Shown: positions 3,920 through 13,589, counted from the stretch's first letter. The stretch is 32,000 nt of DNA from Erysipelothrix inopinata (GCF_014396165.1 NZ_CP060715.1:1950001-1982000); one strand, 5' to 3'. Made by a program: numbers and translations. Notes: generated by a model from the sequence alone, not told the origin.

Positions 3920-4801
3920 TTAGATTACTTTCCATTCTAATTCGAGTTCGACATCAAACTCTTCAGAAACTCTCTTTTTACATTCGTTAATAACCGCATG
4001 CATATCATGAACACTTGCATTACCTGTGTTCACAATAAAGCCAGGATGTTTTTCAGATACCATAGCATCCCCAACTTTATAACCACGGAGGTTTACAGTA
4101 TCGAATAACTTCCAAACATAAAGTGAGTTTCCTTCTTTATCCTTTGGACGTTTGAAGACACTTCCTGCATTTGCATAATTTCGGGGTTGTTTAACATAAC
4201 GTTCATGGCGATAATAAAGCATTTTTTCAAGTGCCTCGTTGTAATCACCTGGCAATGTTTTTAAACCAGCACCCAATACATAAACAGGCATTTCATTTAA
4301 GCGTGAATAACGATATCCGAAGAATCCTTCATCAGGAACAACACGTTCAATTTGCTCTGTCTCATAGTTATAGACATCAATCCATTTTACATATTGTCCA
4401 ATTGAATATTGCCATTGTCCGGCATTCATGATGAGTGCACCACCAATAGTTCCTGGAATATCTTCTAAGAATTCCATTTCTCCTAATGACTGTTCACACG
4501 CAAACCAAGATAAGCGATTTAAACGAGCACCACTTTCCACAACAATTTCATTATTTTTGATCTCAATATTGTTTAAAAGAACGGTTACGATGAAGACAGT
4601 GTCATCGCCATAACTATCTTGTGAGAACACAATATTAGATCCATTTCCAATAATAACTATTTTTCTATCTTTATATTCTTTTAATGCATCAGCAAATCCT
4701 TGTAATGTATGCGGTAAAACAATTGTTTCCGCCATTACGTCTAATCTTAATGTATTATAACGCTTCAATGAAGCATTATTCATCACGAAATATTCTTTCA
4801 T
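3920..4801 (-). CDS. murB: UDP-N-acetylenolpyruvoylglucosamine reductase MurB
   Basis: 293 aa. FAD-binding region IIGNGSNIVF and the C-terminal NAGSVFKRP and GFIVNTGNA motifs are typical of MurB. RBS AAAGGAG. Confidence 0.95.
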   Translation of the reverse strand: MKEYFVMNNASLKRYNTLRLDVMAETIVLPHTLQGFADALKEYKDRKIVIIGNGSNIVFSQDSYGDDTVFIVTVLLNNIEIKNNEIVVESGARLNRLSWFACEQSLGEMEFLEDIPGTIGGALIMNAGQWQYSIGQYVKWIDVYNYETEQIERVVPDEGFFGYRYSRLNEMPVYVLGAGLKTLPGDYNEALEKMLYYRHERYVKQPRNYANAGSVFKRPKDKEGNSLYVWKLFDTVNLRGYKVGDAMVSEKHPGFIVNTGNASVHDMHAVINECKKRVSEEFDVELELEWKVI

Positions 4802-4857
4802 AAGAACTCCTTTTATACTTGTGTTAACCCTTATTAAGTTTACACGTTTATGCGTGT

Positions 4858-5565
4858 TTATTCAAGTTCACGAATCAATTTTGGCATATCTACAGCCGTT
4901 AAAATATGAAGAGGTGGTTGCGATAGTTTTCCATCCTCTGTTATCAGAATAGCAATCAGTACTTTTCCTTTATCATGGAGTCGTTCATAACGATCCACAA
5001 CCTCTAAAATTGTCTCATGCGATGATACAAACATCACACGTTCATCATCCACATCACATTTCAAAACCTCAGAAATTGATAATGTATTGAGATCGATAAT
5101 CTCATTTGCATTCAAACCAAGATAACGTTGATAAAGACGAGAATGCAAAATTCCTACATAGCGCTCTCCCACATAAACCGGAACAACCGAATAGTTTTTT
5201 TCCTCTTGAGTTTTGATAATTTCTTTTAAATCATCATCAATATCAGCACAATACACTTTTCCTTGAATGACTTCACGAATCCTTTTTGGTTCTGTAAGTT
5301 GCTTCGCAATTGATTCAAGGTGTTCAACCACTTCAAGATGTGGTTCTGCGATAACTTCTTCATATCCGACACGACTATGCACAATGGCATTTCGTAACTG
5401 AGCATAGTCGATGAGATCCATTTGATTTTTCTTAATAATGACATTTTTCTTAGCAGCTACAGCTACTAATTTAGAAAATGAAGCATGATCAATTTTCAAT
5501 TCACGTTTCATAATTCGTTCAACTTCAACAAAAGCATTTAGAAATCTTGTGGAATTACGCTCCAT
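4858..5565 (-). CDS. Uncharacterized protein: N-terminal HEPN-like domain (Rx4H motif) fused to a CBS-domain pair
   Basis: Start taken at MERNSTRF (RBS AAGGTGG 6 nt upstream). The N-terminal helical region contains YAQLRNAIVHS (R-x4-H). The C-terminal half has two CBS-like repeats (VVPVYVGERYVGILH; VLIAILITEDGKL...ILTAVD). Confidence 0.55.
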   Translation of the reverse strand: MERNSTRFLNAFVEVERIMKRELKIDHASFSKLVAVAAKKNVIIKKNQMDLIDYAQLRNAIVHSRVGYEEVIAEPHLEVVEHLESIAKQLTEPKRIREVIQGKVYCADIDDDLKEIIKTQEEKNYSVVPVYVGERYVGILHSRLYQRYLGLNANEIIDLNTLSISEVLKCDVDDERVMFVSSHETILEVVDRYERLHDKGKVLIAILITEDGKLSQPPLHILTAVDMPKLIRELE

Positions 5566-6940
5566 CTTCAACCACCTTCTCATTCATCACTTCTGAAATT
5601 CTAATTTTAATTTCAGCAAGGCTATCTGTGTCTGGCCATGAGACGTAATATTTAAAGTTATCATCTTGACTGTACGTTGGTTGCATATCCCCTGTACCAC
5701 TCAAACTCACTTCTTCAAACTGCCATACACCATTATTATCAATTTGTTCTGCAATTAATCGCGATAAGTTATAATCCGATAAATTCGTATCGATCATATA
5801 ACGTATTTTTTGAAATAATTGCGGAGTTTTCATTAAAAACTGTGGAGAAACACTCTTCATAAAGATAGCCTTCACTAATTCTTGATGATGCATTCCTCGT
5901 GACACATCCCCATAATCGATGTGGTCACGTTCTCTGGCAAACGATAAGGCCTGCTCACCATTTACATGATTCATCCCTTCGGTAAAATGAAATCCTCCGT
6001 CGGTATCAAAGGTATAGTGAGATAACACATCAACACCATCAAGAGCATCCACGATTTCAACAAGTCCCGTGAAATTTAATCTCATGTAATAATTGATATC
6101 AACACCGTAAAACTTCTCAAGTGTTTTAACAGAGCATGCAACACCATAGATACCAGCATGAGTTAGTTTATCATAAGCTTTCGTTTCACAGCCTAGAGGC
6201 AAGTATGTATCTCGTGGCGTGGTAACCGAAAGAACTTTATGCGTTGCCGGATTTATAACTAGCAGCAAATTCATATCCGATCGTGAACGACTCACTACAT
6301 CACCAAATACATCAATTCCACTTAAGTAGATAATGAAGGATTCTTTGGTAACATCCACTTCTTTAGCAATTGAAACTCGGGGTTCTTTAAATGTAAATGA
6401 ATCAACAGATGTTGCTTCATTCGCAAACTTTGGTCGCAGCGTTGAAATATCTGCAAGAATTGTTTTATTAATTATCAGAGCGTCAATCTCATTTCCGTAA
6501 AGGGCATCAAGCATTGATGCCAGTGTGGGAAACGCACGATACTCTATTTCTTTATCAAGATATGCTTTTTGAATTTCAGATTCATGATTCTCTTTAACTC
6601 CAAAGACACCAATGACCTTAAGTGAATGATTCACATTTTCATTAAGTTGATAAACTGAGTACTCAACAACCTCAAAGTCTTTCGTATCAGAAATATCATT
6701 GACAACCCATTGAACTGAGACTAAGGCGATACTTACAATGATTATGAGTGCCGATAAAAGATATCGCCACACCGATTTTTTTGTCACAATCATGATTACC
6801 ATCGTAATTGCAATGATAGAGAATAAGATTAACAATCGAATTCTCAACGGAATAAACCTCATAGTGAATAATGCAACAAGTAATATTACCATTGATACCA
6901 ATACGCATATTGGGGCAATGACTCTATGATTTTTATTCAT
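5555..6940 (-). CDS. LytR-CpsA-Psr (LCP) family cell-wall polymer phosphotransferase with multi-TM N-terminus
   Basis: LLLVINPATHKVLSVTTPRDTY, DKLTHAGIYG and NGEQALSFARER are LCP domain signatures. Several N-terminal TM helices. Confidence 0.9.
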   Translation of the reverse strand: MNKNHRVIAPICVLVSMVILLVALFTMRFIPLRIRLLILFSIIAITMVIMIVTKKSVWRYLLSALIIIVSIALVSVQWVVNDISDTKDFEVVEYSVYQLNENVNHSLKVIGVFGVKENHESEIQKAYLDKEIEYRAFPTLASMLDALYGNEIDALIINKTILADISTLRPKFANEATSVDSFTFKEPRVSIAKEVDVTKESFIIYLSGIDVFGDVVSRSRSDMNLLLVINPATHKVLSVTTPRDTYLPLGCETKAYDKLTHAGIYGVACSVKTLEKFYGVDINYYMRLNFTGLVEIVDALDGVDVLSHYTFDTDGGFHFTEGMNHVNGEQALSFARERDHIDYGDVSRGMHHQELVKAIFMKSVSPQFLMKTPQLFQKIRYMIDTNLSDYNLSRLIAEQIDNNGVWQFEEVSLSGTGDMQPTYSQDDNFKYYVSWPDTDSLAEIKIRISEVMNEKVVEDGA

Positions 6941-7011: not shown

Positions 7012-7158
7012 TTATTTAACATCTGCGCGGTTTACGCGGTGTGGTACTGACCATTCTCCTGTTTGAGGATCTTTTACCAATGTAACATTAGGTAATTTAT
7101 AGTGTGTACGACGTTTTGCTTTTCGAGCTTTTGATGTTCGTCTTTTTGGAACTGCCAT
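7012..7158 (-). CDS. rpmF: 50S ribosomal protein L32 (absent from the ORF track, below its size cutoff)
   Basis: My translation: [48 protein letters not shown] (48 aa). RBS GGAGGTG. Sits downstream of yceD as usual. Confidence 0.95.
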
Positions 7159-7176
7159 GATTTCACCTCCGTTTGG

Positions 7177-7695
7177 TTAATCTAATTTGAAATCTTTCAA
7201 TTTAGCAAGTCTTGGATCTATTTGTTGACTTTTTTCTTTAATATAATCTTCTTCAGTCATTACGATCCAGCCATCACCTTTTGGATATTCATCCAAGTTA
7301 GGATCTATAGCTTTTAGTGGAACTTCAGCAAGTATTGCCCCTACTATATAAGGAGTCATATCAAGCTCTTCTCCATCAACTTCAATTATACCTTCGTCTT
7401 CCGCTTCCGCATCTACTGAATCGAAGCTAAAAACTTCAGATACTCTTGTAGAAAAGTCAATGTCAAAGGGATTCAATGTTATAGCACAAGGCACTGTCAT
7501 AATCCCTTCAATTGATATATCTGCAATCAATGTTGAAGAATGACTATCATAGTACATATGACCTACTGCGAAGATATCACGCAAAGCAGTGCATCGAGGA
7601 TGATTCTCAATAATTTCTGAATCAATCTCAATCGCTTCGCGGACTTCGAAATTCGGAGTCTTTAAGTGATCCAAATCCATTCTATTAAATATCAT
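7177..7695 (-). CDS. yceD: YceD/DUF177 family protein (large-subunit rRNA accumulation protein)
   Basis: 172 aa acidic protein immediately upstream of rpmF, which is the conserved pairing. Confidence 0.8.
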   Translation of the reverse strand: MIFNRMDLDHLKTPNFEVREAIEIDSEIIENHPRCTALRDIFAVGHMYYDSHSSTLIADISIEGIMTVPCAITLNPFDIDFSTRVSEVFSFDSVDAEAEDEGIIEVDGEELDMTPYIVGAILAEVPLKAIDPNLDEYPKGDGWIVMTEEDYIKEKSQQIDPRLAKLKDFKLD

Positions 7696-7723
7696 ACTCT
7701 CACCTACTTTTTAACGCTACTTA

Positions 7724-7752
7724 ATTATAGAGAAAATGATTTCGATTGTCAA
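7724..7752 (-). promoter_or_regulatory. Consensus sigma-A promoter of yceD-rpmF
   Basis: The minus strand reads TTGACA-17 nt-TATAAT (TGTCAA at 7747-7752 and ATTATA at 7724-7729 on +). Confidence 0.7.
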
Positions 7753-7824
7753 ACGAAATAGCCAATTTAAAGTGGGATTTTCTTAGGAATTGAATTGCAT
7801 GCAAACAAAAAGAAAAAAGGCGAT

Positions 7825-7865
7825 TGAACTGCTCCCTGTCAAGTAGACAGGTGAAATAAATAAAA
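7825..7865. repeat. IS terminal inverted repeat (orfB-proximal end)
   Basis: TGAACTGCTCCCTGTCAAGTAGACAGGTGAAATAAATAAAA matches the reverse complement of 9602-9642. Confidence 0.8.
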
Positions 7866-7906
7866 TACCCAAGATGATTTATCGCTTTACGATGAATCAT
7901 CTTTTC

Positions 7907-8854
7907 TTATGCTACAGTCGCCTGCATTTGCTTTTCTCTAATGTTTGACCAATAAGCTTCAATTTTCTTGTTGGTTGGAATTGAATAACTTATAGGTGTC
8001 TCTGATCCTAATGCTTCAGTTCGAACCATCATTGGTGTTTTGTTTTTAAATCGTTTTTGAAGTCTCTTGTTGTTATAAAAATCAATATACGCATCAATTG
8101 CTTTCTTTAACTCGCTTTTAGTATTGAATTCATTAGGATAGTACATTTCTGATTTGATAGTTCCCCAGAATCCTTCCATAGGACCATTATCAATACAGTG
8201 TCCCACTCTAGACATACTTTGTATCATTCCTTGATCTTCTAGCTGTTTTCTAAATACCCTACTTGTATATTGGAATCCTCGGTCACTGTGAAATAAAGGC
8301 TTTGCCTCTGGATATCTCGTGATAGCTTTATGATAAGTATCAAACACAAGTTGATTATTGTTACGATCACTTATGTGGTACGCCACAATACTCAAATCAT
8401 AAAGATCAATAATCGCACTGAGATACAGCTTCTTACCTGAACCTTTAATCTTAAATTCTGTGACATCTGTCAACCATTTTTCATTTGGTCTAGAAGCAAA
8501 GAAATTACGATTTAAAATATTTTCAGCTGTGATTTCAGGAGTGCTTCGTGAATACTTTTTAGACTTTTGACGAATCACTGATTTCACACCCAGCATCTTC
8601 ATGAGTCTATGAATCCTCTTTGGGTTATAATGAACTCTATTAAGTTCATTAATCCAATCTGTCATTCGTCGATAACCTAAGATATGTCCAAACATTTCAT
8701 CATAATCAAGAATGAGATTACAAAGCTCATGATTCTCAATTTCATTGCTTGTTTCAACACGGTGCGTCCATTTATAATAACTGCTTCTTGCGATTTTAAG
8801 TACCTTACACATCCATTGAATGCTCCAACCATGTTTATAATGAAGTTCTTGCAC
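7907..8854 (-). CDS. IS3-family transposase OrfB (DDE/rve integrase core)
   Basis: WLTDVTEF, HSDRGFQYTS and NGPMEGFWGTIKSE contain the D, D and E residues. The reading frame stays open upstream of the listed GTG start as far as the slippery site. Confidence 0.9.
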   Translation of the reverse strand: MQELHYKHGWSIQWMCKVLKIARSSYYKWTHRVETSNEIENHELCNLILDYDEMFGHILGYRRMTDWINELNRVHYNPKRIHRLMKMLGVKSVIRQKSKKYSRSTPEITAENILNRNFFASRPNEKWLTDVTEFKIKGSGKKLYLSAIIDLYDLSIVAYHISDRNNNQLVFDTYHKAITRYPEAKPLFHSDRGFQYTSRVFRKQLEDQGMIQSMSRVGHCIDNGPMEGFWGTIKSEMYYPNEFNTKSELKKAIDAYIDFYNNKRLQKRFKNKTPMMVRTEALGSETPISYSIPTNKKIEAYWSNIREKQMQATVA

Positions 8855-8865
8855 GGCAAGATACT

Positions 8866-9570
8866 TTACTTCTTGTTTTGCTTTGGAGAATATCGCCGCC
8901 CTTCTATTTCCTTCACTTTTTTTAATAGAATATTCTCACGTTCTTTCAGTTCAAGTTCTCTTTCGAGTTGTTTGATTTTACGTTCTAAACGTTCTTCATT
9001 ACTGAGTTGATCTTCTTGTTTTCGTTTGCCACGTTTATCAAGAAGCCCTTCATATCCTATCTCGTTATATTTTTGAACCCACTGGTAAACTTGAGCATAG
9101 GAAAGACCATAGAGCTCGGCGGTTCCCTTATAATCGTAGTCATGTTCAATACAATGTGCGACAATTTCTTGACGTTCTTCAATCGTTGTTTTTCTACCTT
9201 TTGTCATATAGACTTCTCCTTTAGGATCGTAATCCTTTATGGTTTCAAGTCTATTATACTTGTTTATCCATCCACGCAAAACCTCATCGGAACTTATATC
9301 GTATTTGATAATAATATCTGCGAGAGAACCTAGTCCTTCAAGGTAATCTTGAATAGCAGATTCCTTAAGTTCTTTCGAATAACTTTTATTTCGAGGTTTA
9401 TATGAGAATGCTTCAACACCGACGATTTGGTATTTTTTCACCCATCTACGCAATGTCCCAGGATTAATCGATAATTCTTGGGATATTTCCATTGCACCTT
9501 TTATGCCGTTCAAATATTCTTTAACTACTTGTTCTTTTATTTCCGCTGGATATTTATTCTTTCTACCCAT
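8866..9570 (-). CDS. IS3-family transposase OrfA (HTH domains plus leucine-zipper-like C-terminus)
   Basis: 234 aa with repeated HTH segments and a charged coiled coil (ERLERKIKQLERELELKEREN). RBS AAAGGAGGAG. Confidence 0.9.
   Translation of the reverse strand: MGRKNKYPAEIKEQVVKEYLNGIKGAMEISQELSINPGTLRRWVKKYQIVGVEAFSYKPRNKSYSKELKESAIQDYLEGLGSLADIIIKYDISSDEVLRGWINKYNRLETIKDYDPKGEVYMTKGRKTTIEERQEIVAHCIEHDYDYKGTAELYGLSYAQVYQWVQKYNEIGYEGLLDKRGKRKQEDQLSNEERLERKIKQLERELELKERENILLKKVKEIEGRRYSPKQNKK
8916..8923 (-). other. Programmed -1 ribosomal frameshift site A-AAA-AAG joining OrfA to OrfB
   Basis: The minus strand reads TTAAAAAAAGTG. Shifting -1 here gives ...KKSEGNRRAAIFSKAKQEVKYLAVQELHYKHGW, which runs into the OrfB frame. 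Confidence 0.75.
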
Positions 9571-9601
9571 AGAAAAAGCTCCTCCTTTTTGTAGTACCCG
9601 T

Positions 9602-9642
9602 TTTTATTTATTTCGGGTGTCTACTTTAAGGGGAGCTTATCA
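9602..9642. repeat. IS terminal inverted repeat (orfA-proximal end)
   Basis: The reverse complement reads TGATAAGCTCCCCTTAAAGTAGACACCCGAAATAAATAAAA. Confidence 0.8.
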
Positions 9643-9847
9643 GATTATAAGTTGCCTTTTTTCTTTTAAGGGAAAGATTAATTTATATATGATAAGGATT
9701 AATATGGGGTATGAATTCTTTAAGGAGAAGAGTTTATCATATGCGCAAGAGATGGGGTCCTCTTACAATGAATACTATACAACTTAATTATGGTAGAACA
9801 TTGCTCTCTTCGTGGTAGATTATGGGAACTCATCTCCCGAACTCCAG
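9643..9847. repeat. Structured tandem repeat unit U1 (its terminator hairpin is split by the IS; the first 14 nt are at 7811-7824)
   Basis: Joining 7811-7824 to 9646 onward restores AAAAAAGGCgattataagttGCCTTTTTT, which corresponds to the GGCC hairpins of the other units. The rest aligns with U2, U4 and U5. Confidence 0.85.
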
Positions 9848-10060
9848 AAAAAAAAGGCCATTATAGCGGCCTCAATTTTTTAGGGAAAGTTTATATGATA
9901 AGTTTCATATGGGGTATGAATCTTTTAGGAGAAGAGTTTATCATATGCGCAAGAGATGGGGTCCTCTTACAATGAATACTATACAACTTAATTATGGTAG
10001 AATATTGCTCTCTTAATGGTATATTGTGGGAATGATATAAATATTACAGTTTCACAATCT
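9848..10060. repeat. Structured tandem repeat unit U2
   Basis: A8-GGCC(9856-9859)-attatagc-GGCC(9868-9871)-TCAATTTTTT, then the conserved core. The last ~45 nt differ from U1/U4/U5. Confidence 0.9.
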
Positions 10061-10253
10061 AAAAAAGGCCCATTATTATAGAGGCCTTTATTTAGGGGAA
10101 AAATTATTTATATGATAAATATTCATAAGGGGCTATGAATATCTTTTTAGGAGAAGAGTTTATCATATGTGCAAGAGTCATATCCCTCTTACACTTAATA
10201 ATATACGCTTCTTGTGTGTAATTAATGCGATAAGAAAATGTTAGATTATGGGA
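10061..10253. repeat. Structured tandem repeat unit U3 (diverged copy that abuts the nucleotidyltransferase stop codon)
   Basis: AGGCC(10066-10070)...GGCCT(10083-10087) hairpin. Same stem architecture as the other units with compensatory changes. It ends TGTTAGATTATGGGA and overlaps the last 8 nt of CDS 10246-10791. Confidence 0.8.
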
Positions 10254-10791
10254 GTATCACTAATTCTTTCCATTTTTCTTCCCACTTCTTTGTTTTTACT
10301 CGTTTTAGGAATACTTCGTGCTTACCCGATCCAACTTTATACTCTGGTGTTGGCGAAATAACTAAATTTAATAAGTCTTCCACACCATGAGGTGCAATAA
10401 CTTCCACTTTCCCTTCACGGATTCGTGCTGCAATTGCAGTACATGTTTCTGGAAATGCACCAATTGCATCCTCCACTGATATGAACGGATCTCTGTATCC
10501 ATTATAGAGATGCATGTGACACTCATTTTTGACTTCCCAGTCGTATTGTGGATATTCGCTAAGAAATCTCTCTTGGATCTCTAATGTTTCTTCATAGCTA
10601 ACAGATGGATCAAAGAAAACGACATCGACATCAGAAATGATTTCAAATTGATGATGACACAGGGTATCCCAAATATAATTTCGTATTGTACCTGCACAGA
10701 GACACCCTTGCTTCAAATCAAATTTTTCAACGATACGAAGTATCGCCATAATCTCATCGTTATTTTCAATCAAACCAACAATTCTATCCAT
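10246..10791 (-). CDS. Nucleotidyltransferase family protein (Pol-beta fold, DUF925/NTP_transf_6-like), function unknown
   Basis: CAGTIRNYIWD...SDVDVVFFD fits the G[SG]-x(n)-DxD NTase motif. WEVKNECHMHLYN resembles the VKNQARMH signature I recall for the DUF925 family. RBS AGGAGG. Confidence 0.65.
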   Translation of the reverse strand: MDRIVGLIENNDEIMAILRIVEKFDLKQGCLCAGTIRNYIWDTLCHHQFEIISDVDVVFFDPSVSYEETLEIQERFLSEYPQYDWEVKNECHMHLYNGYRDPFISVEDAIGAFPETCTAIAARIREGKVEVIAPHGVEDLLNLVISPTPEYKVGSGKHEVFLKRVKTKKWEEKWKELVILP

Positions 10792-10811
10792 CGCAAATTC
10801 CTCCTGTCACA

Positions 10812-10840
10812 ATCTTAACTTTGCGAACAACTTAATGCAA
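10812..10840 (-). promoter_or_regulatory. Sigma-A-type promoter of the nucleotidyltransferase gene
   Basis: The minus strand reads TTGCAT-17 nt-TAAGAT, about 20 nt upstream of the AGGAGG RBS and directly downstream of the U4 terminator hairpin. Confidence 0.55.
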
Positions 10841-10843
10841 GCG

Positions 10844-11047
10844 AAAAAAAAGGCCATTATAGTGGCCTCAATTTTTAGGGAAAGTTTATATGATAAGAAT
10901 TCATATGGGGTATGAATCTTTTAGGAGAAGAGTTTATCATATGCGCAAGAGATGGGGTCCTCTTACAATGAATACTATACAACTTAATTATGGTAGAACA
11001 TTGCCCTCTTCGTGGTAGATTATGGGAACTCATCTCATGAACTCCAG
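10844..11047. repeat. Structured tandem repeat unit U4
   Basis: 204 bp. Differs from U5 at about 5 positions by eye. Confidence 0.9.
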
Positions 11048-11251
11048 AAAAAAAAGGCCATTATAGCGGCCTTAACTTTTAGGGAAAGTTTATATGATAA
11101 GAATTCATATGGGGTATGAATCTTTTAGGAGAAGAGTTTATCATATGCGCAAGAGATGGGGTCCTCTTACAATGAATACTATACAACTTAATTATGGTAG
11201 AACATTGCTCTCTTCGTGGTAGATTATGGGAACTCATCTCATGAACTCCAG
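11048..11251. repeat. Structured tandem repeat unit U5 (used here as the reference copy)
   Basis: Hairpin GGCC 11056-11059 / 11068-11071. Long stem ATATGATAA 11092-11100 / TTATCATAT 11138-11146. Inner hairpin TTCATA-tgggg-TATGAA 11104-11120. Hairpin AAGAG-atggggtc-CTCTT 11151-11168. TGGTAGA boxes at 11195 and 11217. Confidence 0.9.
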
Positions 11252-11434
11252 AAAAAAAAGGCCATTATAGCGGCCTCAATTTTTTAGGGAAAGTTTATAT
11301 GATAAGTTTCATATGGGGTATGAATCTTTTAGGAGAAGAGTTTATCATATTTATAAGAGGATCTGCCTCTTACATGTATAACTATACATAATTAATATGT
11401 TAGAACATCTTCGAATTAATGTTAGATTATGGGA
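11252..11434. repeat. Structured tandem repeat unit U6 (abuts the xerC stop codon; its first half matches U2, its second half is diverged)
   Basis: 11252-11350 reads identically to 9848-9946 by eye, then diverges. It ends TGTTAGATTATGGGA immediately before the xerC stop at 11435. Confidence 0.85.
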
Positions 11435-12316
11435 TTAATCAAGAGGTAGATTTTTCATGGCCTCATCATAAGCATCTTTAATTCTTTTCATACTTACATG
11501 CGTATAGATCTGAGTGGTGCTTAACGATTCATGTCCAAGTAGTTCTTGAACAATTCTCAAGCTTGCCCCATTATCTAGAAGATGTGTTGCAAAGCTATGC
11601 CTTAGCATATGAGGATGTACATTTATTTTTAATCCAGCTTTCTCTGATTGTTTTTCTAGAATATATTGAACTCCGCGCGTTGTCAAAGGTTTTCCTTGTC
11701 CATTCACAAAAACAAAATCTTCGCCTGTTTTAGAAAGTTTGGGACGAACAACATTCAGATAATTCATGAGTTTCGGATTCAAGGCGTCATAGTAGAACAA
11801 TATCCGCTCTTTATTCCCCTTACCGATAACTCTTACGACTCTCTCGCTAGTATCAATGTCTTTACACTTAAGATTGCATACTTCGCTTACACGAAGCCCA
11901 CAGGCGTACATAAGCTCAATTAAAATCTGATTACGAATTCCTAAATTAGAGTCATCACAACTTAATAGTAGTTTCTCGATTTCATCAAACATTAAAAACT
12001 GTGGCAACTTGCGACTTTGCTTCCGAATTTTAATATGAATAAATGGGTTTGCTAAAGCGCCATAATTTTGTTGCAAAAATTTATAAAAAGATCGCAGCGA
12101 GGAAATTTTACGGGCAACACTGGCTGATGACAATCCTGATTCATACAGTTCATTTAAATACGAGTATGCTAGTTTGTCATCGACTTCTAGAACATTATGC
12201 GAACCAATAAATTCTAAAAACTGAGACACATCTCGATAATAAGCATCGGCAGTATGTTCTGATGATGTATTGGTAATCGCAATATGTCTCATGAATTCTT
12301 TAAGATATTGTGTCAA
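11435..12316 (-). CDS. xerC: Tyrosine recombinase XerC (CodV-type); start probably TTG at 12316
   Basis: Catalytic region LRHSFATHLLDNGASLRIVQELLGHESLSTTQIYTHV (R..HxxR..Y). Sits after topA-trmFO as in Bacillus. The ORF-track ATG at 12400 would overlap trmFO by 100 nt, whereas the TTG (MTQYLKEF...) has AAGGAA upstream. Confidence 0.85.
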   Translation of the reverse strand: MTQYLKEFMRHIAITNTSSEHTADAYYRDVSQFLEFIGSHNVLEVDDKLAYSYLNELYESGLSSASVARKISSLRSFYKFLQQNYGALANPFIHIKIRKQSRKLPQFLMFDEIEKLLLSCDDSNLGIRNQILIELMYACGLRVSEVCNLKCKDIDTSERVVRVIGKGNKERILFYYDALNPKLMNYLNVVRPKLSKTGEDFVFVNGQGKPLTTRGVQYILEKQSEKAGLKINVHPHMLRHSFATHLLDNGASLRIVQELLGHESLSTTQIYTHVSMKRIKDAYDEAMKNLPLD

Positions 12317-13589
12317 TGAGTTCCTTAATATGAGTGATGCTTCTCTCAGCCATTTCTTCACGATCTTTGAGACGGTTCGCAATAAGCCCAAAGTTCGCAT
12401 TCATAGGTTGAAATTGGTGAGGATTCGCATTTGCAACATAATTCGCCATCGATCCCATCATTGTTTCTGATGATAACTCTATCAGTGGTTTCTCTTCAAG
12501 ATGTTGTATCATATTCAATGCTGCAAATAATCCACTTGCTGCCGATTCAACATATCCTTCAACACCACTAATTTGACCCGCAAAGAATAGATTGGAGTTT
12601 TTTAAAGTTTGGTAGTGACGATTTAATATTAACGGTGACTTGATAAATGTATTTCGATGCATAACACCATAACGTACGATTTCAACATTTTCAAGTCCTG
12701 GTATTAATTGAATAACTTTCTTTTGATCTCCCCATTTAAGTCGCGTTTGAAAACCGACGAGATTATAAAGTGATCCCGCTGCATTATCTTGTCTTAATTG
12801 TACAACGGCATATGGTTTTGAACCATTTGGTTTTTCTAAACCTACGGGTTTCAAAGGCCCAAATAACATTGTTTTCATACCGCGCTTGGCCATCACTTCC
12901 ACAGGCATACACCCTTCAAAAACATTAACATCCTCAAATTCACGCATAGGTGCTTCTTCTGATCGAAGGATTGCATCATAGAATGCGAAAAATTCATCTT
13001 TAGTCATAGGACAGTTAATGTAGTCTTGACCGTCACCTTTATCATAACGGGATTTACGGTAAGCAATATCAAAATTAATATTATCGACGGACACGATTGG
13101 CGCAATTGCATCATAAAAGTGAAGCTCAGATTGTCCAAGATAATTCATAAGATACTTTGAAAATGTATCAGAAGTTAAGGGTCCTGTTGCAACTATTGTA
13201 GGCATATTATCAAATTCAACGAATTCTTGGTTAACAAAAGTTATATTATCCATAGACTTCAATTGATTTGTGACACTCTCACTAAATCCGTCACGGTCTA
13301 CTGCAAGAGCACTACCTGCAGGCAACTGATGCAGATCTCCTTGTTTCATAATAATACTATCAAGAAGTCTCATTTCTTCTTTCAATAGTCCCACGGCATT
13401 CGTGATGTCATTGGATCGAAATGAATTTGAACATACAAGCTCAGCAAAATTTTCAGTAACATGCGCTGGTGTCATTTTGACAGAGCGCATTTCTACTAAT
13501 TCGACTTGATATCCTTTTTTAGCAAGTTGGTAGGCAGCCTCACTTCCAGCTAAACCAGCACCAATAACTCTAACTTGCTGTTTCTTCAT
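12300..13589 (-). CDS. trmFO: Methylenetetrahydrofolate--tRNA-(uracil54-C5)-methyltransferase TrmFO (Gid)
   Basis: VRVIGAGLAGSEAAYQLAKKG FAD-binding motif and full-length TrmFO-like sequence. Start taken at MKKQQVRV (13589) rather than 13619, which lies inside topA. Confidence 0.9.
   Translation of the reverse strand: MKKQQVRVIGAGLAGSEAAYQLAKKGYQVELVEMRSVKMTPAHVTENFAELVCSNSFRSNDITNAVGLLKEEMRLLDSIIMKQGDLHQLPAGSALAVDRDGFSESVTNQLKSMDNITFVNQEFVEFDNMPTIVATGPLTSDTFSKYLMNYLGQSELHFYDAIAPIVSVDNINFDIAYRKSRYDKGDGQDYINCPMTKDEFFAFYDAILRSEEAPMREFEDVNVFEGCMPVEVMAKRGMKTMLFGPLKPVGLEKPNGSKPYAVVQLRQDNAAGSLYNLVGFQTRLKWGDQKKVIQLIPGLENVEIVRYGVMHRNTFIKSPLILNRHYQTLKNSNLFFAGQISGVEGYVESAASGLFAALNMIQHLEEKPLIELSSETMMGSMANYVANANPHQFQPMNANFGLIANRLKDREEMAERSITHIKELIDTIS

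Follow-up and report, generated by a model that had tools for sequence, protein, structure and literature searches.

Six tandem units between xerC and yceD-rpmF of Erysipelothrix inopinata as likely genes of a C-rich small RNA family

What purpose might be served by a DNA unit that is repeated six times, head to tail, between the end of the topA-trmFO-xerC operon and yceD-rpmF in Erysipelothrix inopinata? An earlier note on this DNA had described the repeat and left it without a family. We have analysed the whole stretch of 32 kb in which it lies, hereafter called the window, together with related loci from other lineages. The reading that we consider likely is that the array consists of six paralogous small non-coding RNA (sRNA) genes on the minus strand, belonging to a family which is spread across the genus, is absent from Rfam and acts in trans through its C-rich motifs.

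Layout of the array and of the genes around it

The gap between xerC and yceD-rpmF harbours six co-oriented units of 185-218 bp each, a repetition well above what chance would give. All six were matched by an nhmmer profile (E = 1e-43 to 4e-67), which had no further hit in the 32-kb window. With Tandem Repeats Finder, 10843-11350 showed a period of 204 bp (score 965, with 2.5 copies and 97% matches), and a repeat search of the window returned families of three to five copies at the coordinates of the units. The array had been said to fill the whole gap, but a nucleotidyltransferase (NTase) gene and an insertion sequence (IS) are also found there. The features, with the bit scores of our covariance model (CM) R1 where they apply, are as follows.

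7012..7752, minus strand: downstream neighbour operon, with yceD (7177-7695) and rpmF (7012-7158)
7811..7824, minus strand: U1, distal part, which the IS has displaced and which comprises the terminator hairpin's 3' half with the U-run
7825..9642, minus strand: IS3-family insertion sequence of 1,818 bp (Pfam HTH_Tnp_1, HTH_28, rve), with orfA (8866-9570) and orfB (7907-8854)
9643..9847, minus strand: U1, proximal part; upstream motif 9813-9827, -10 box TATAGT 9774-9779, predicted sRNA body starting at about 9766 and reaching through the 5' half of its terminator hairpin to the IS cut; CM 96.9 bits
9848..10060, minus strand: U2; upstream motif TCCCACAATATACCA 10017-10031, -10 box TATAGT 9978-9983, predicted sRNA about 9970 to 9848; CM 106.5 bits
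10061..10253, minus strand: U3; upstream motif 10239-10253, -10 box TATATT 10200-10205, second promoter repeat degenerate, predicted sRNA about 10192 to 10061; CM 96.4 bits, fold z = -4.94
10246..10791, minus strand: NTase gene inside the array (PF06042 NTP_transf_6, Pfam E 2e-46)
10844..11047, minus strand: U4; upstream motif 11013-11027, -10 box TATAGT 10974-10979, predicted sRNA about 10966 to 10844, with the NTase gene next after its terminator; CM 112.3 bits
11048..11251, minus strand: U5; upstream motif 11217-11231, -10 box TATAGT 11178-11183, predicted sRNA about 11170 to 11048; CM 112.3 bits, fold -28.5 kcal/mol, z = -4.66, none of 200 shuffles as stable
11252..11434, minus strand: U6; upstream motif TCCCATAATCTAACA 11420-11434, immediately following the stop codon of xerC, -10 box TATAGT 11381-11386, predicted sRNA about 11373 to 11252 with the 3' end GGCCgcuauaauGGCC plus U8; CM 94.6 bits, E 8e-19, fold z = -4.52
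11435..12292, minus strand: xerC/codV-like tyrosine recombinase gene, upstream neighbour of the array and last gene of the topA-trmFO-xerC operon

U4 and U5, previously thought to differ at about five positions, differ at exactly 5 (98% identity), and U5 shares 89% identity with U1, so that these near-identical neighbours point to recent duplication or gene conversion. The most diverged copies are indeed U3 (64-69% identity to the other units) and, in second place, U6 (69-77%), and both touch a stop codon, as the earlier note had remarked: the NTase stop TAA (10246-10248) falls within the start motif TCCCATAA of U3, and U6 follows xerC immediately. That the array is no CRISPR locus was borne out, since the units abut without spacers and are far longer than CRISPR repeats (about 24-48 bp).

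With regard to the neighbours, all genes flanking the array lie on the minus strand, the same as the informative strand of the units. The best structural match of the NTase is PDB 2LA3, an "uncharacterized protein" (E 1e-44), and the order sRNA unit followed by NTase also exists in Erysipelothrix sp. HDW6C. The likely start of xerC yields a protein of 285 residues, the length of its orthologue in a related metagenome-assembled genome (MAG), whereas the 321-residue ORF reaching to 12400 would overlap trmFO. The IS3-family element, which bears imperfect terminal inverted repeats that can be read from the sequence (TGAACTGCTCCC...AGTAGACA), is not a member of the repeat family but disrupts U1: it sits in the loop of the U1 terminator hairpin, between two copies of a 3-bp target duplication, GAT (7822-7824 and 9643-9645). 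The displacement of the first 14 nt of U1, proposed from the window, is thus confirmed by this duplication and by the related MAG that is free of the IS, in which the hairpin is intact (GGTaacttataatcACC plus T6).

Strand, transcription signals and RNA fold

The earlier note had read the units on the plus strand, each starting with a GGCC hairpin. The minus strand gives the better reading, in which this hairpin and its T-run form the 3' end of each unit. In that direction, each one presents an upstream motif, a TAnnnT -10 box, a predicted transcript of about 122-132 nt with two hairpins, and an intrinsic terminator. Terminators with U8 tails (T8 in the DNA) close U6, U5, U4 and U2, and terminator-like sites are in excess overall (11 found for 2.1 expected). 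A hand-made structural alignment read on the minus strand contains 39 G.U cells and no A.C cell, and the CM scores of the units range from 95 to 112 bits on the minus strand compared with 17 to 22 bits on the plus strand. The better terminators, the ratio of G.U to A.C cells and the CM scores all led us to reject the plus-strand reading.

A TAnnnT hexamer stands 6-8 nt ahead of a conserved GUAAG in 22 of 22 homologs. Further upstream, an element TCMCAYAAT-YTAACA occupies about -61 to -46, at a spacing to the promoter which is fixed among homologs, and a second YTAACAT box follows it by 22 nt. The motif has six exact matches in the 32-kb window, all of them at the units, where 1.1 would be expected even with up to two mismatches. 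No recognisable -35 box was found in the unit promoters, and for this reason the upstream element and the YTAACAT box are probably the binding site of an activator; the gene annotation of the window includes no regulator gene. The TATAAT of the terminator loop was also considered as the -10 box of the next unit and was discarded, as a plausible -35 box is missing and no terminator precedes the first unit after xerC. This conserved (U)AUAAU loop is given no role by the sRNA-gene model. In one copy, the unit-start motif resembles the reverse complement of a XerD arm.

The predicted RNA starts near GUAAGA and folds into a hairpin H1 (GUAAGA/UCUUAC), followed by a long hairpin H2 carrying CUCUUCUCCU in its 5' internal loop and CCCC in its apical loop, and by a single-stranded UUUCCC(U) linker that leads to the terminator. 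Three C-rich motifs (CUUCUCC, the CCCC loop and UUUCCC) are therefore unpaired in this predicted fold, within an RNA composed of 11% G and 20% C. Folded one by one, 11 diverse homologs all adopted the same architecture (z from -3.9 to -8.5, with none of 200 shuffles as stable). The most conserved positions of the RNA are precisely the unpaired ones, TTCTCC, CCCC and TTTCC(C), which are invariant or nearly so, while the stems vary.

In a CM alignment of 23 distinct sequences, 95.6% of the cells pair, and 17 of the 24 pairs show double-sided changes, compared with 5.4 +/- 1.5 in shuffles (0/500) and at most 7 in slid controls; these covariation counts rest on alignments fitted to the structure, by the CM or by hand, and plain MAFFT followed by RNAalifold recovered only the two helices that are conserved in sequence. 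The G.U and A.C cells were counted on the hand alignment and covariation on the CM alignment, and a version that had been padded with N and passed through MAFFT, partly re-shifted, was excluded. A coding function was rejected as well: there are ORFs of 42-52 residues in U4 and U5 and one of 21 residues within the RNA, but neither length nor frame is conserved. Across 27 homologs the longest ORFs span 1 to 30 residues and are spread over all three frames relative to the conserved motif, in agreement with the lack of a common reading frame noticed earlier among the copies.

Distribution in Erysipelothrix and interleaved accessory genes

Diverged homologs were detected by nhmmer and CM R1 at the xerC-yceD position in at least 10 other Erysipelothrix-like lineages, including E. 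piscisicarius, Erysipelothrix spp. HDW6B and HDW6C, several MAGs and metagenome contigs, whereas negative-control loci gave none. A locus carries from one to six or more copies (1, 3, 4 or more, 6). Most homologs lie between xerC and yceD, and the first unit adjoins or overlaps the xerC stop codon in all examined loci. A scan of genome contigs with a strict 22-base pattern, too narrow for diverged homologs, found only the E. inopinata-like MAG species and two chance matches. With a looser pattern made of H1 and CTTCTCCT, a scan of metagenome contigs yielded at least five true homologs, as judged by nhmmer, among the matches listed, which were mostly due to chance. Orthologous copies occupy the same position in lineages whose YceD proteins are only 53-68% identical, with compensatory changes in the stems, which implies long-term purifying selection on the RNA fold. 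Short-read draft assemblies collapse or break at the array, hence copy numbers are underestimated in draft genomes.

It could be argued from this synteny that the units are cis elements, either duplicates of the 3'-UTR and terminator of topA-trmFO-xerC, or leaders and attenuators of the NTase gene and of yceD-rpmF. The constant contact with the xerC stop codon would fit, and so would the single-copy species, where the unit precedes yceD, as well as HDW6C, in which the NTase start codon is placed about 15 nt past a unit terminator and could thus depend on read-through. Nevertheless, what comes after most units is simply another unit, every unit carries a conserved -10 box and upstream motif of its own, and units also occur away from xerC and yceD in two loci (copy a of L015, upstream of a two-component operon, and L084). 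Moreover, past the last terminator, both here (7752-7724) and in relatives, yceD-rpmF is served by a separate, perfect sigma-A promoter (TTGACA-17-TATAAT), which shows that the array does not act as leader to the operon. A plain terminator would also leave the conserved unpaired C-rich motifs without a role, and we regard a cis function as distinctly unlikely.

The near identity of some neighbours and the behaviour of draft assemblies might alternatively suggest a MITE-, RUP- or BOX-like repeat that is selfish or mobile, or else functionless intergenic DNA that was recently duplicated in place. The units, which had already been set apart from REP/BOX-type elements, have neither terminal inverted repeats nor target duplications at their ends, and no copies were found elsewhere in the window or, outside the syntenic island, in the other fetched loci of about 20 kb. 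A strictly local duplication would be expected in one strain only and with no covariation, as the earlier note had put it, whereas the element exists across Erysipelothrix with strong covariation and at an orthologous position in distant lineages. This explanation appears to us extremely improbable.

The accessory genes raise another question. They separate units in three lineages: E. inopinata (NTase), HDW6C (NTase with an adhesin, and RpiR-GH1-PTS) and HDW6B (a two-component system with a Bce-like ABC transporter), and the sRNA-gene model gives no account of this interleaving. The units might then be boundaries of a gene-cassette platform, that is, integron-like recombination or integration sites beside xerC, or targets for IS. 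Genes upstream of units end in, or just ahead of, the unit-start motif, IS3-type elements occupy the terminator loop of the last unit in two species, and NCBI names some orthologues of the recombinase "tyrosine recombinase/integron integrase". This name stems from a generic model, though, and the E. inopinata protein, encoded by the conserved last gene of a housekeeping operon, scores best with the XerC model (NCBIfam TIGR02224, 313 bits) and falls short of the cut-offs of the integron integrase models (143 bits for 265 with TIGR02249, 90 for 435 with NF011946). The supposed cassettes are multi-gene operons with their own regulators and not promoterless ORFs. The features under selection belong to RNA (G.U pairs, covarying stems, C-rich loops, U-tailed terminators) and differ from attC- or dif-like boxes. 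An integron was thus rejected, given the integrase scores and the promoter and terminator signals and RNA-level covariation of the repeats. A dif/Xer site was rejected too: the unit-start motif looks like a single XerC arm (CACATAA) and lacks a conserved partner arm. Overall, we judge a cassette platform highly improbable.

A combined view, which we hold to be very unlikely, is that the sRNA array doubles as a genus-wide capture site for accessory genes, the units being both regulators and island boundaries. The start motif or the AU-rich terminator loops would then mark the points where cassettes (NTase, adhesin, sugar PTS operon, two-component system with ABC transporter, IS3 elements) are inserted, lost or shuffled, perhaps with the help of the neighbouring XerC-like recombinase or of recombination among the units.

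Relation to known C-rich sRNAs and presumed mode of action

Returning to the sRNA genes, the Rfam search suggested in the earlier note gave no match with Rfam 15 at gathering scores over the whole window, and lowering the threshold to E <= 10 produced only noise, the best sub-threshold family being csRNA. The unit thus has no named family, as had been stated, yet it falls within a well-known kind of element, the sRNA gene. Our literature search found no paper on Erysipelothrix sRNAs. Assignment to the C-rich trans-acting sRNAs, a class defined by function and not by homology, is consistent with the predicted promoter and Rho-independent terminator, the non-coding character of the unit, and a conserved fold that exposes C-rich motifs. 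The units most likely represent a previously undescribed family of this familiar kind, namely multicopy sibling C-rich sRNAs.

The closest parallel in layout is LhrC1-5 of Listeria monocytogenes (RF00616), which are induced by cell-envelope stress in a LisRK-dependent manner. The CM of this family has no match at its gathering score in the window, nor at E <= 10 in 9600-11500. LhrC is a five-copy sRNA with three UCCC/CU-rich sites that bind the Shine-Dalgarno (SD) region of lapB, and its promoter depends on an element upstream of about -53, the LisR site (PMC4132741). As in LhrC, sibling copies (six here) stand head to tail in one intergenic region with their own promoters and terminators, the RNAs are G-poor and of about 110-130 nt, three redundant CU-rich or UCCC motifs lie in loops and single-stranded stretches, those of LhrC binding SD sequences, and an upstream promoter element exists (about -53 in LhrC, -61 to -46 here). 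Genus, order and genomic site are different, however. The C-rich sites of LhrC are found in loop A, an unpaired stretch and the loop of the terminator, whereas here they occupy the internal loop of a long two-level hairpin, an apical loop and a linker; the terminator loop here is AU-rich (UAUAAU) and not UCCC, and a further hairpin (GUAAGA/UCUUAC) is present at the 5' end.

The Cia-dependent csRNAs of streptococci (RF02379) likewise exist in several paralogous copies per genome, some of them adjacent, with two stem-loops, an unpaired CU-rich stretch resembling an anti-SD sequence, and a promoter that lacks a -35 box and whose activation relies on direct repeats lying upstream of the -10 box. 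Their CM gave at best 23.1 bits, for U3 only, where 57 is the gathering score (E = 3.9). The direct repeat is here YTAACAT with a 22-nt period, and the RNA is longer with another helix layout. The CiaR repeat TTTAAG-N5-TTTAAG has 10 matches in the window at up to two mismatches, where 9.3 would occur by chance, and none within 9643-11434.

RsaE/RoxS of Bacillales (RF01820), usually single-copy and controlled by SrrAB/ResDE and Rex, shares the C-rich composition, CCCC in an apical hairpin loop, single-stranded motifs of UCCC type and an intrinsic terminator, but has other helices and another genomic context; its CM had no match in the window at gathering scores, nor at E <= 10 in 9600-11500. 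Work cited within PMC4132741 is described there as placing the action of RsaE/RoxS on SD sequences. By analogy with LhrC, csRNA and RsaE, the C-rich RNAs of Erysipelothrix probably pair with SD regions.

The sibling sets of Gram-negative hosts, namely Qrr1-5, PrrF1/2, NgncR_162/163 and AbcR1/2, are Hfq-dependent and comprise at most 2-5 copies. Their sequences are unrelated to ours, and here six copies form one array with accessory genes interleaved. Such siblings are duplicated, co-regulated and often in tandem, with duplication serving dosage or leading to partly divergent targets (PMC9973317, PMC5362039).

We propose that each unit is a self-contained gene, composed of an upstream element, a -10 box, the RNA and a Rho-independent terminator, whose transcription would be governed by a regulator binding at the upstream element. 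The three exposed, G-poor and C-rich motifs would mimic the anti-SD sequence and pair in trans with the G-rich ribosome-binding sites of presumptive target mRNAs, thereby blocking translation or altering mRNA stability. Near-identical copies under one promoter type may provide a higher dose and a sharper response, while the diverged U3 and U6 may have shifted in regulation or targets.

The units might also act with no mRNA pairing, as structured RNAs that titrate a protein, be it as a sponge or decoy for a protein binding CU-rich sequences or as a ribosome or S1-type decoy. All the structural and conservation evidence fits this equally well, and three redundant C-rich motifs in each of up to six RNAs form a layout typical of titrating RNAs. 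In addition, no target emerged when duplexes of the three motifs were sought with the 30 translation-initiation regions of the 32-kb window, a weak test given so little sequence, the motifs scoring no better than composition-matched shuffles. On the other hand, the units contain no GGA motifs of CsrA type, a candidate protein gene linked to the array in every species was not found, and for low-GC Gram-positive bacteria the pairing of exposed UCCC and CCCC motifs with SD sequences has been demonstrated repeatedly (PMC4132741). We consider titration unlikely and favour pairing in trans.

Swine erysipelas, fish disease and human erysipeloid are caused by members of the genus Erysipelothrix. If our reading is correct, a conserved C-rich sRNA equipped with a promoter, with copy numbers from one to six or more, is probably a major post-transcriptional regulator in these bacteria and, by analogy with LhrC, csRNA and RsaE, might control envelope, stress or metabolic genes. 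The element now has a covariance model, precise gene coordinates and a conserved promoter motif with which to look for its regulator, and the natural series of copy numbers offers a test of why bacteria keep sibling sRNAs. Should the array also prove to be a capture site, the repeats would not only regulate but also form the structural limits of a small, "sRNA-bounded" genomic island.

Organisation of the array between xerC and yceD

The window is from Erysipelothrix inopinata or a very near relative, its YceD matching that of E. inopinata at 100% identity. The genes of the region all lie on the minus strand, in the order topA, trmFO, xerC, repeats, a PF06042 nucleotidyltransferase (NTase) gene, repeats, an IS3-family element, yceD-rpmF, a LytR-CpsA-Psr gene, murB and murJ.

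Features of the array, all on the minus strand
11435-12292, minus: xerC, upstream neighbour of the repeats
11252-11434, minus: unit U6
11048-11251, minus: unit U5
10844-11047, minus: unit U4
10246-10791, minus: NTase gene, between the repeat blocks
10061-10253, minus: unit U3
9848-10060, minus: unit U2
9643-9847 and 7811-7824, minus: unit U1, split by the IS
7825-9642, minus: IS3-family element (orfA/orfB), inserted in the U1 terminal hairpin loop

The six-copy array proposed in the earlier note is real and correctly delimited: Tandem Repeats Finder reported a 204-bp period at 10843-11350 (97% matches, score 965), a repeat search returned families of three to five copies at the coordinates of the units, and a unit profile matched all six (E = 1e-43 to 4e-67) with no further copy in the 32-kb window. 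U4 and U5, said there to differ at about 5 positions, differ at exactly 5, and U3 and U6 are indeed the most diverged copies (64-69% and 69-77% identity to the others, respectively). The plus-strand phasing of the units was in error, as it is the minus strand that presents promoter-like motifs, RNA and terminator in order; the minus strand is the informative one, and along it each unit has the make-up of a compact gene. The longest xerC ORF (321 aa, 11435-12400) overlaps trmFO by ~100 nt, but the likely start is at 12292 because the MAG orthologue is called at 285 aa; no exact record of the 321-aa product was found.

Predicted promoters and terminators of the units

The 5' part of each unit carries the 15-nt motif TCCCAYAATMTAMCA, a second box (TTCTAMCAT) 22 nt downstream and a -10 hexamer (TATAGT or TATATT), with GUAAGAGG located 7 nt past the latter; a GC-rich hairpin followed by U6-8 ends the unit 122-132 nt after GUAAGAGG. 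Every unit has one copy of the upstream motif and the window contains no others (six occurrences, against 1.1 expected by chance even at ≤2 mismatches). A terminator scan found four minus-strand hairpins with a T8 tail, and 11 terminator-like sites in the region vs 2.1 expected. In all 22 aligned promoters, a TAnnnT hexamer precedes GUAAG by 6-8 nt and a TCACAYAAT-YTAACAT element spans -61 to -46. The direct repeat, together with the absence of a recognisable -35 hexamer upstream of the units, suggests an activator-dependent promoter; no regulator gene lies near the array in the window.

The gene upstream of a unit has its stop codon within the unit-start motif TCACATAAT or directly ahead of it, so that the first promoter element extends into the 3' end of a coding sequence. 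This concerns xerC in four lineages, NTase in the window and an ABC ATPase in HDW6B (window, minus strand: 11435-11437 for xerC and 10246-10248 for NTase; fetched loci: L018 4231-4233, L021 9721-9723, L024 9170-9172, L015 4636-4638). That the units are a leader or 3'-UTR element of the flanking operons is unlikely, since what follows most of them is another unit alone, and a perfect TTGACA-17-TATAAT promoter belonging to yceD lies past the last terminator.

A (T)ATAAT core, (U)AUAAU in RNA, is conserved in the loops of the terminators across species despite differing stems (e.g., 11260-11267, 11056-11063, 10852-10859 and 9856-9863 in the window, with homologs in L015, L018, L019, L021 and L112). 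Its use as a -10 box looks unlikely, as a -35 box is missing and no terminator precedes the first unit. A 3-bp target duplication (GAT) flanks the IS, which interrupts the terminal hairpin of U1 in its loop; in an IS-free relative this hairpin is intact. U1 is now without terminator and directed into the transposase genes. A degenerate IS likewise occupies the terminator hairpin of the single unit of E. piscisicarius (L018 ~4395-5760), with ends related to those of the window IS (...GTCAA..AAGTAGACA). With the terminator loop of the last unit hit in two species, IS3-type elements may prefer AU-rich terminator loops as target.

Fold and covariation of the predicted RNA

For U5, the RNA (11170 to 11048) has a folding energy of -28.5 kcal/mol (z = -4.66). 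Its predicted fold comprises a first hairpin, H1 (GUAAGAG/CUCUUGC), a long hairpin, H2, with outer stem AUAUGAUAA/UUAUCAUAU, ACUCUUCUCCUAAAAG exposed in the 5' internal loop, inner stem AUUCAUA/UAUGAAU and CCCC in the apical loop, and an unpaired linker AAACUUUCCCUAAAA before the terminator. Eleven diverse homologs, folded singly, all give H1, a two-level H2, the unpaired linker and the terminator (z = -3.9 to -8.5; 0/200 shuffles as stable). The family is G-poor (11% G, 20% C).

R1, a covariance model of 92 positions and 24 pairs based on seven sequences, gives 94.6-112.3 bits for the window units and 28-69 bits for distant homologs, with just 17-22 bits on the opposite strand and no match in control loci. 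Across 23 distinct sequences aligned with R1, 95.6% of cells pair and 17 of the 24 pairs changed on both sides (column shuffles 5.4 ± 1.5, 0/500 reaching the observed value; slid partners ≤7), while a hand-made structural alignment holds compensatory changes in 10 of the 11 outer-stem pairs of H2, both alignments leaning towards structure because they were fitted to it. A plain MAFFT alignment recovered two sequence-conserved helices and no more. In the hand-made alignment, 39 G.U cells against no A.C cell fix the RNA strand. Blocks constant across homologs are the unpaired TTCTCC, CCCC and TTTCC(C); across the family it is structure, and not sequence, that is conserved.

ORFs of 42-52 aa in U4 and U5 (10875-11033 and 11079-11237, minus; 10890-11018 and 11094-11222, plus) are a product of the repeat sequence. 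Other units and other species lack them or have them frame-shifted, and the earlier remark that copies share no reading frame is borne out across homologs.

Distribution, family assignment and possible function

Two MAGs of an E. inopinata-like species carry an IS-free version of the array, each with 100 N inside it (L001 9715-9813, L006 7077-7176). Several short-read contigs with identical yceD/YceD break off inside U1 (L009-L014, position 1); the repeats thus break assemblies. Diverged copies occur in every distant syntenic region fetched via YceD and XerC homologs (53-68% identity), and none in two other Erysipelotrichaceae loci without xerC-yceD synteny.

Unit copies in relatives (numbers from draft genomes are unreliable because repeats collapse or break assemblies)
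E. piscisicarius: one, directly after xerC
HDW6C: three
HDW6B-like genomes: at least four
Uncultured lineage (L024): three
Two further lineages: one each
Metagenome contigs: five extra matches

A mobile repeat is unlikely, given the confinement of all copies in the window and fetched loci to one syntenic island, the absence of terminal repeats or target duplications at the units, and the long-term covariation.

NTase lies directly downstream of a unit both in E. inopinata and in Erysipelothrix sp. HDW6C (L149 11289-11819), an order thus conserved in two distant species; it is homologous to PDB 2LA3, an 'uncharacterized protein'. Since its start codon in HDW6C is ~15 nt past the unit's terminator, expression there may depend on read-through. 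Other species have accessory operons intervening between units in the xerC-yceD island, which has the look of a gene-gain hotspot.

Accessory genes
HDW6B-like, L015 1-5843: OmpR-type two-component system, FtsX/ABC (Bce-like) transporter, Trans_reg_C-only protein
HDW6C, L149 10886-20835 (same region as L019): 1,606-aa collagen-binding adhesin, RpiR-GH1-PTS operon

Such interleaving, and the recombinase gene adjoining the array, would suit an integron-like platform; however, this recombinase scores as XerC and fails integron-integrase models, the 'cassettes' are regulator-containing operons, and selection acts on RNA-level features, making this reading highly improbable.

The units are best explained, from their sequence features, as genes for a small RNA; a protein-titrating RNA seems improbable. 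With a promoter and terminator of their own, a covarying fold and three C-rich, G-poor motifs left exposed, the units bear the signature of the trans-acting C-rich sRNAs of low-GC Gram-positives that occlude Shine-Dalgarno (SD) sequences. The units had been left unassigned to any known family, and this holds: no Rfam 15 family matched the window at gathering scores. The best match at E ≤ 10 was csRNA, in U3 only (23.1 bits vs a cut-off of 57), LhrC and RsaE gave no match at all in the array at that threshold, and the CiaR box is absent from the units; membership in csRNA, LhrC or RsaE was rejected on these grounds. As membership in named families fails, the element would be a new family of a known kind. 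Full-text searches found no literature on Erysipelothrix sRNAs, and the array probably represents six genes of a previously undescribed sRNA family of this genus.

A duplex scan of the C-rich motifs against 30 start regions, within the 32-kb window alone, did no better than composition-matched shuffles. In design, the nearest counterpart is LhrC of Listeria, which has five copies and three redundant UCCC/CU-rich binding sites, and whose promoter element upstream of -53 is required for LisR-dependent induction (PMC4132741). By this analogy, the Erysipelothrix sRNA would pair in trans with SD sequences via its C-rich motifs, and the copy number of units would set its dose.
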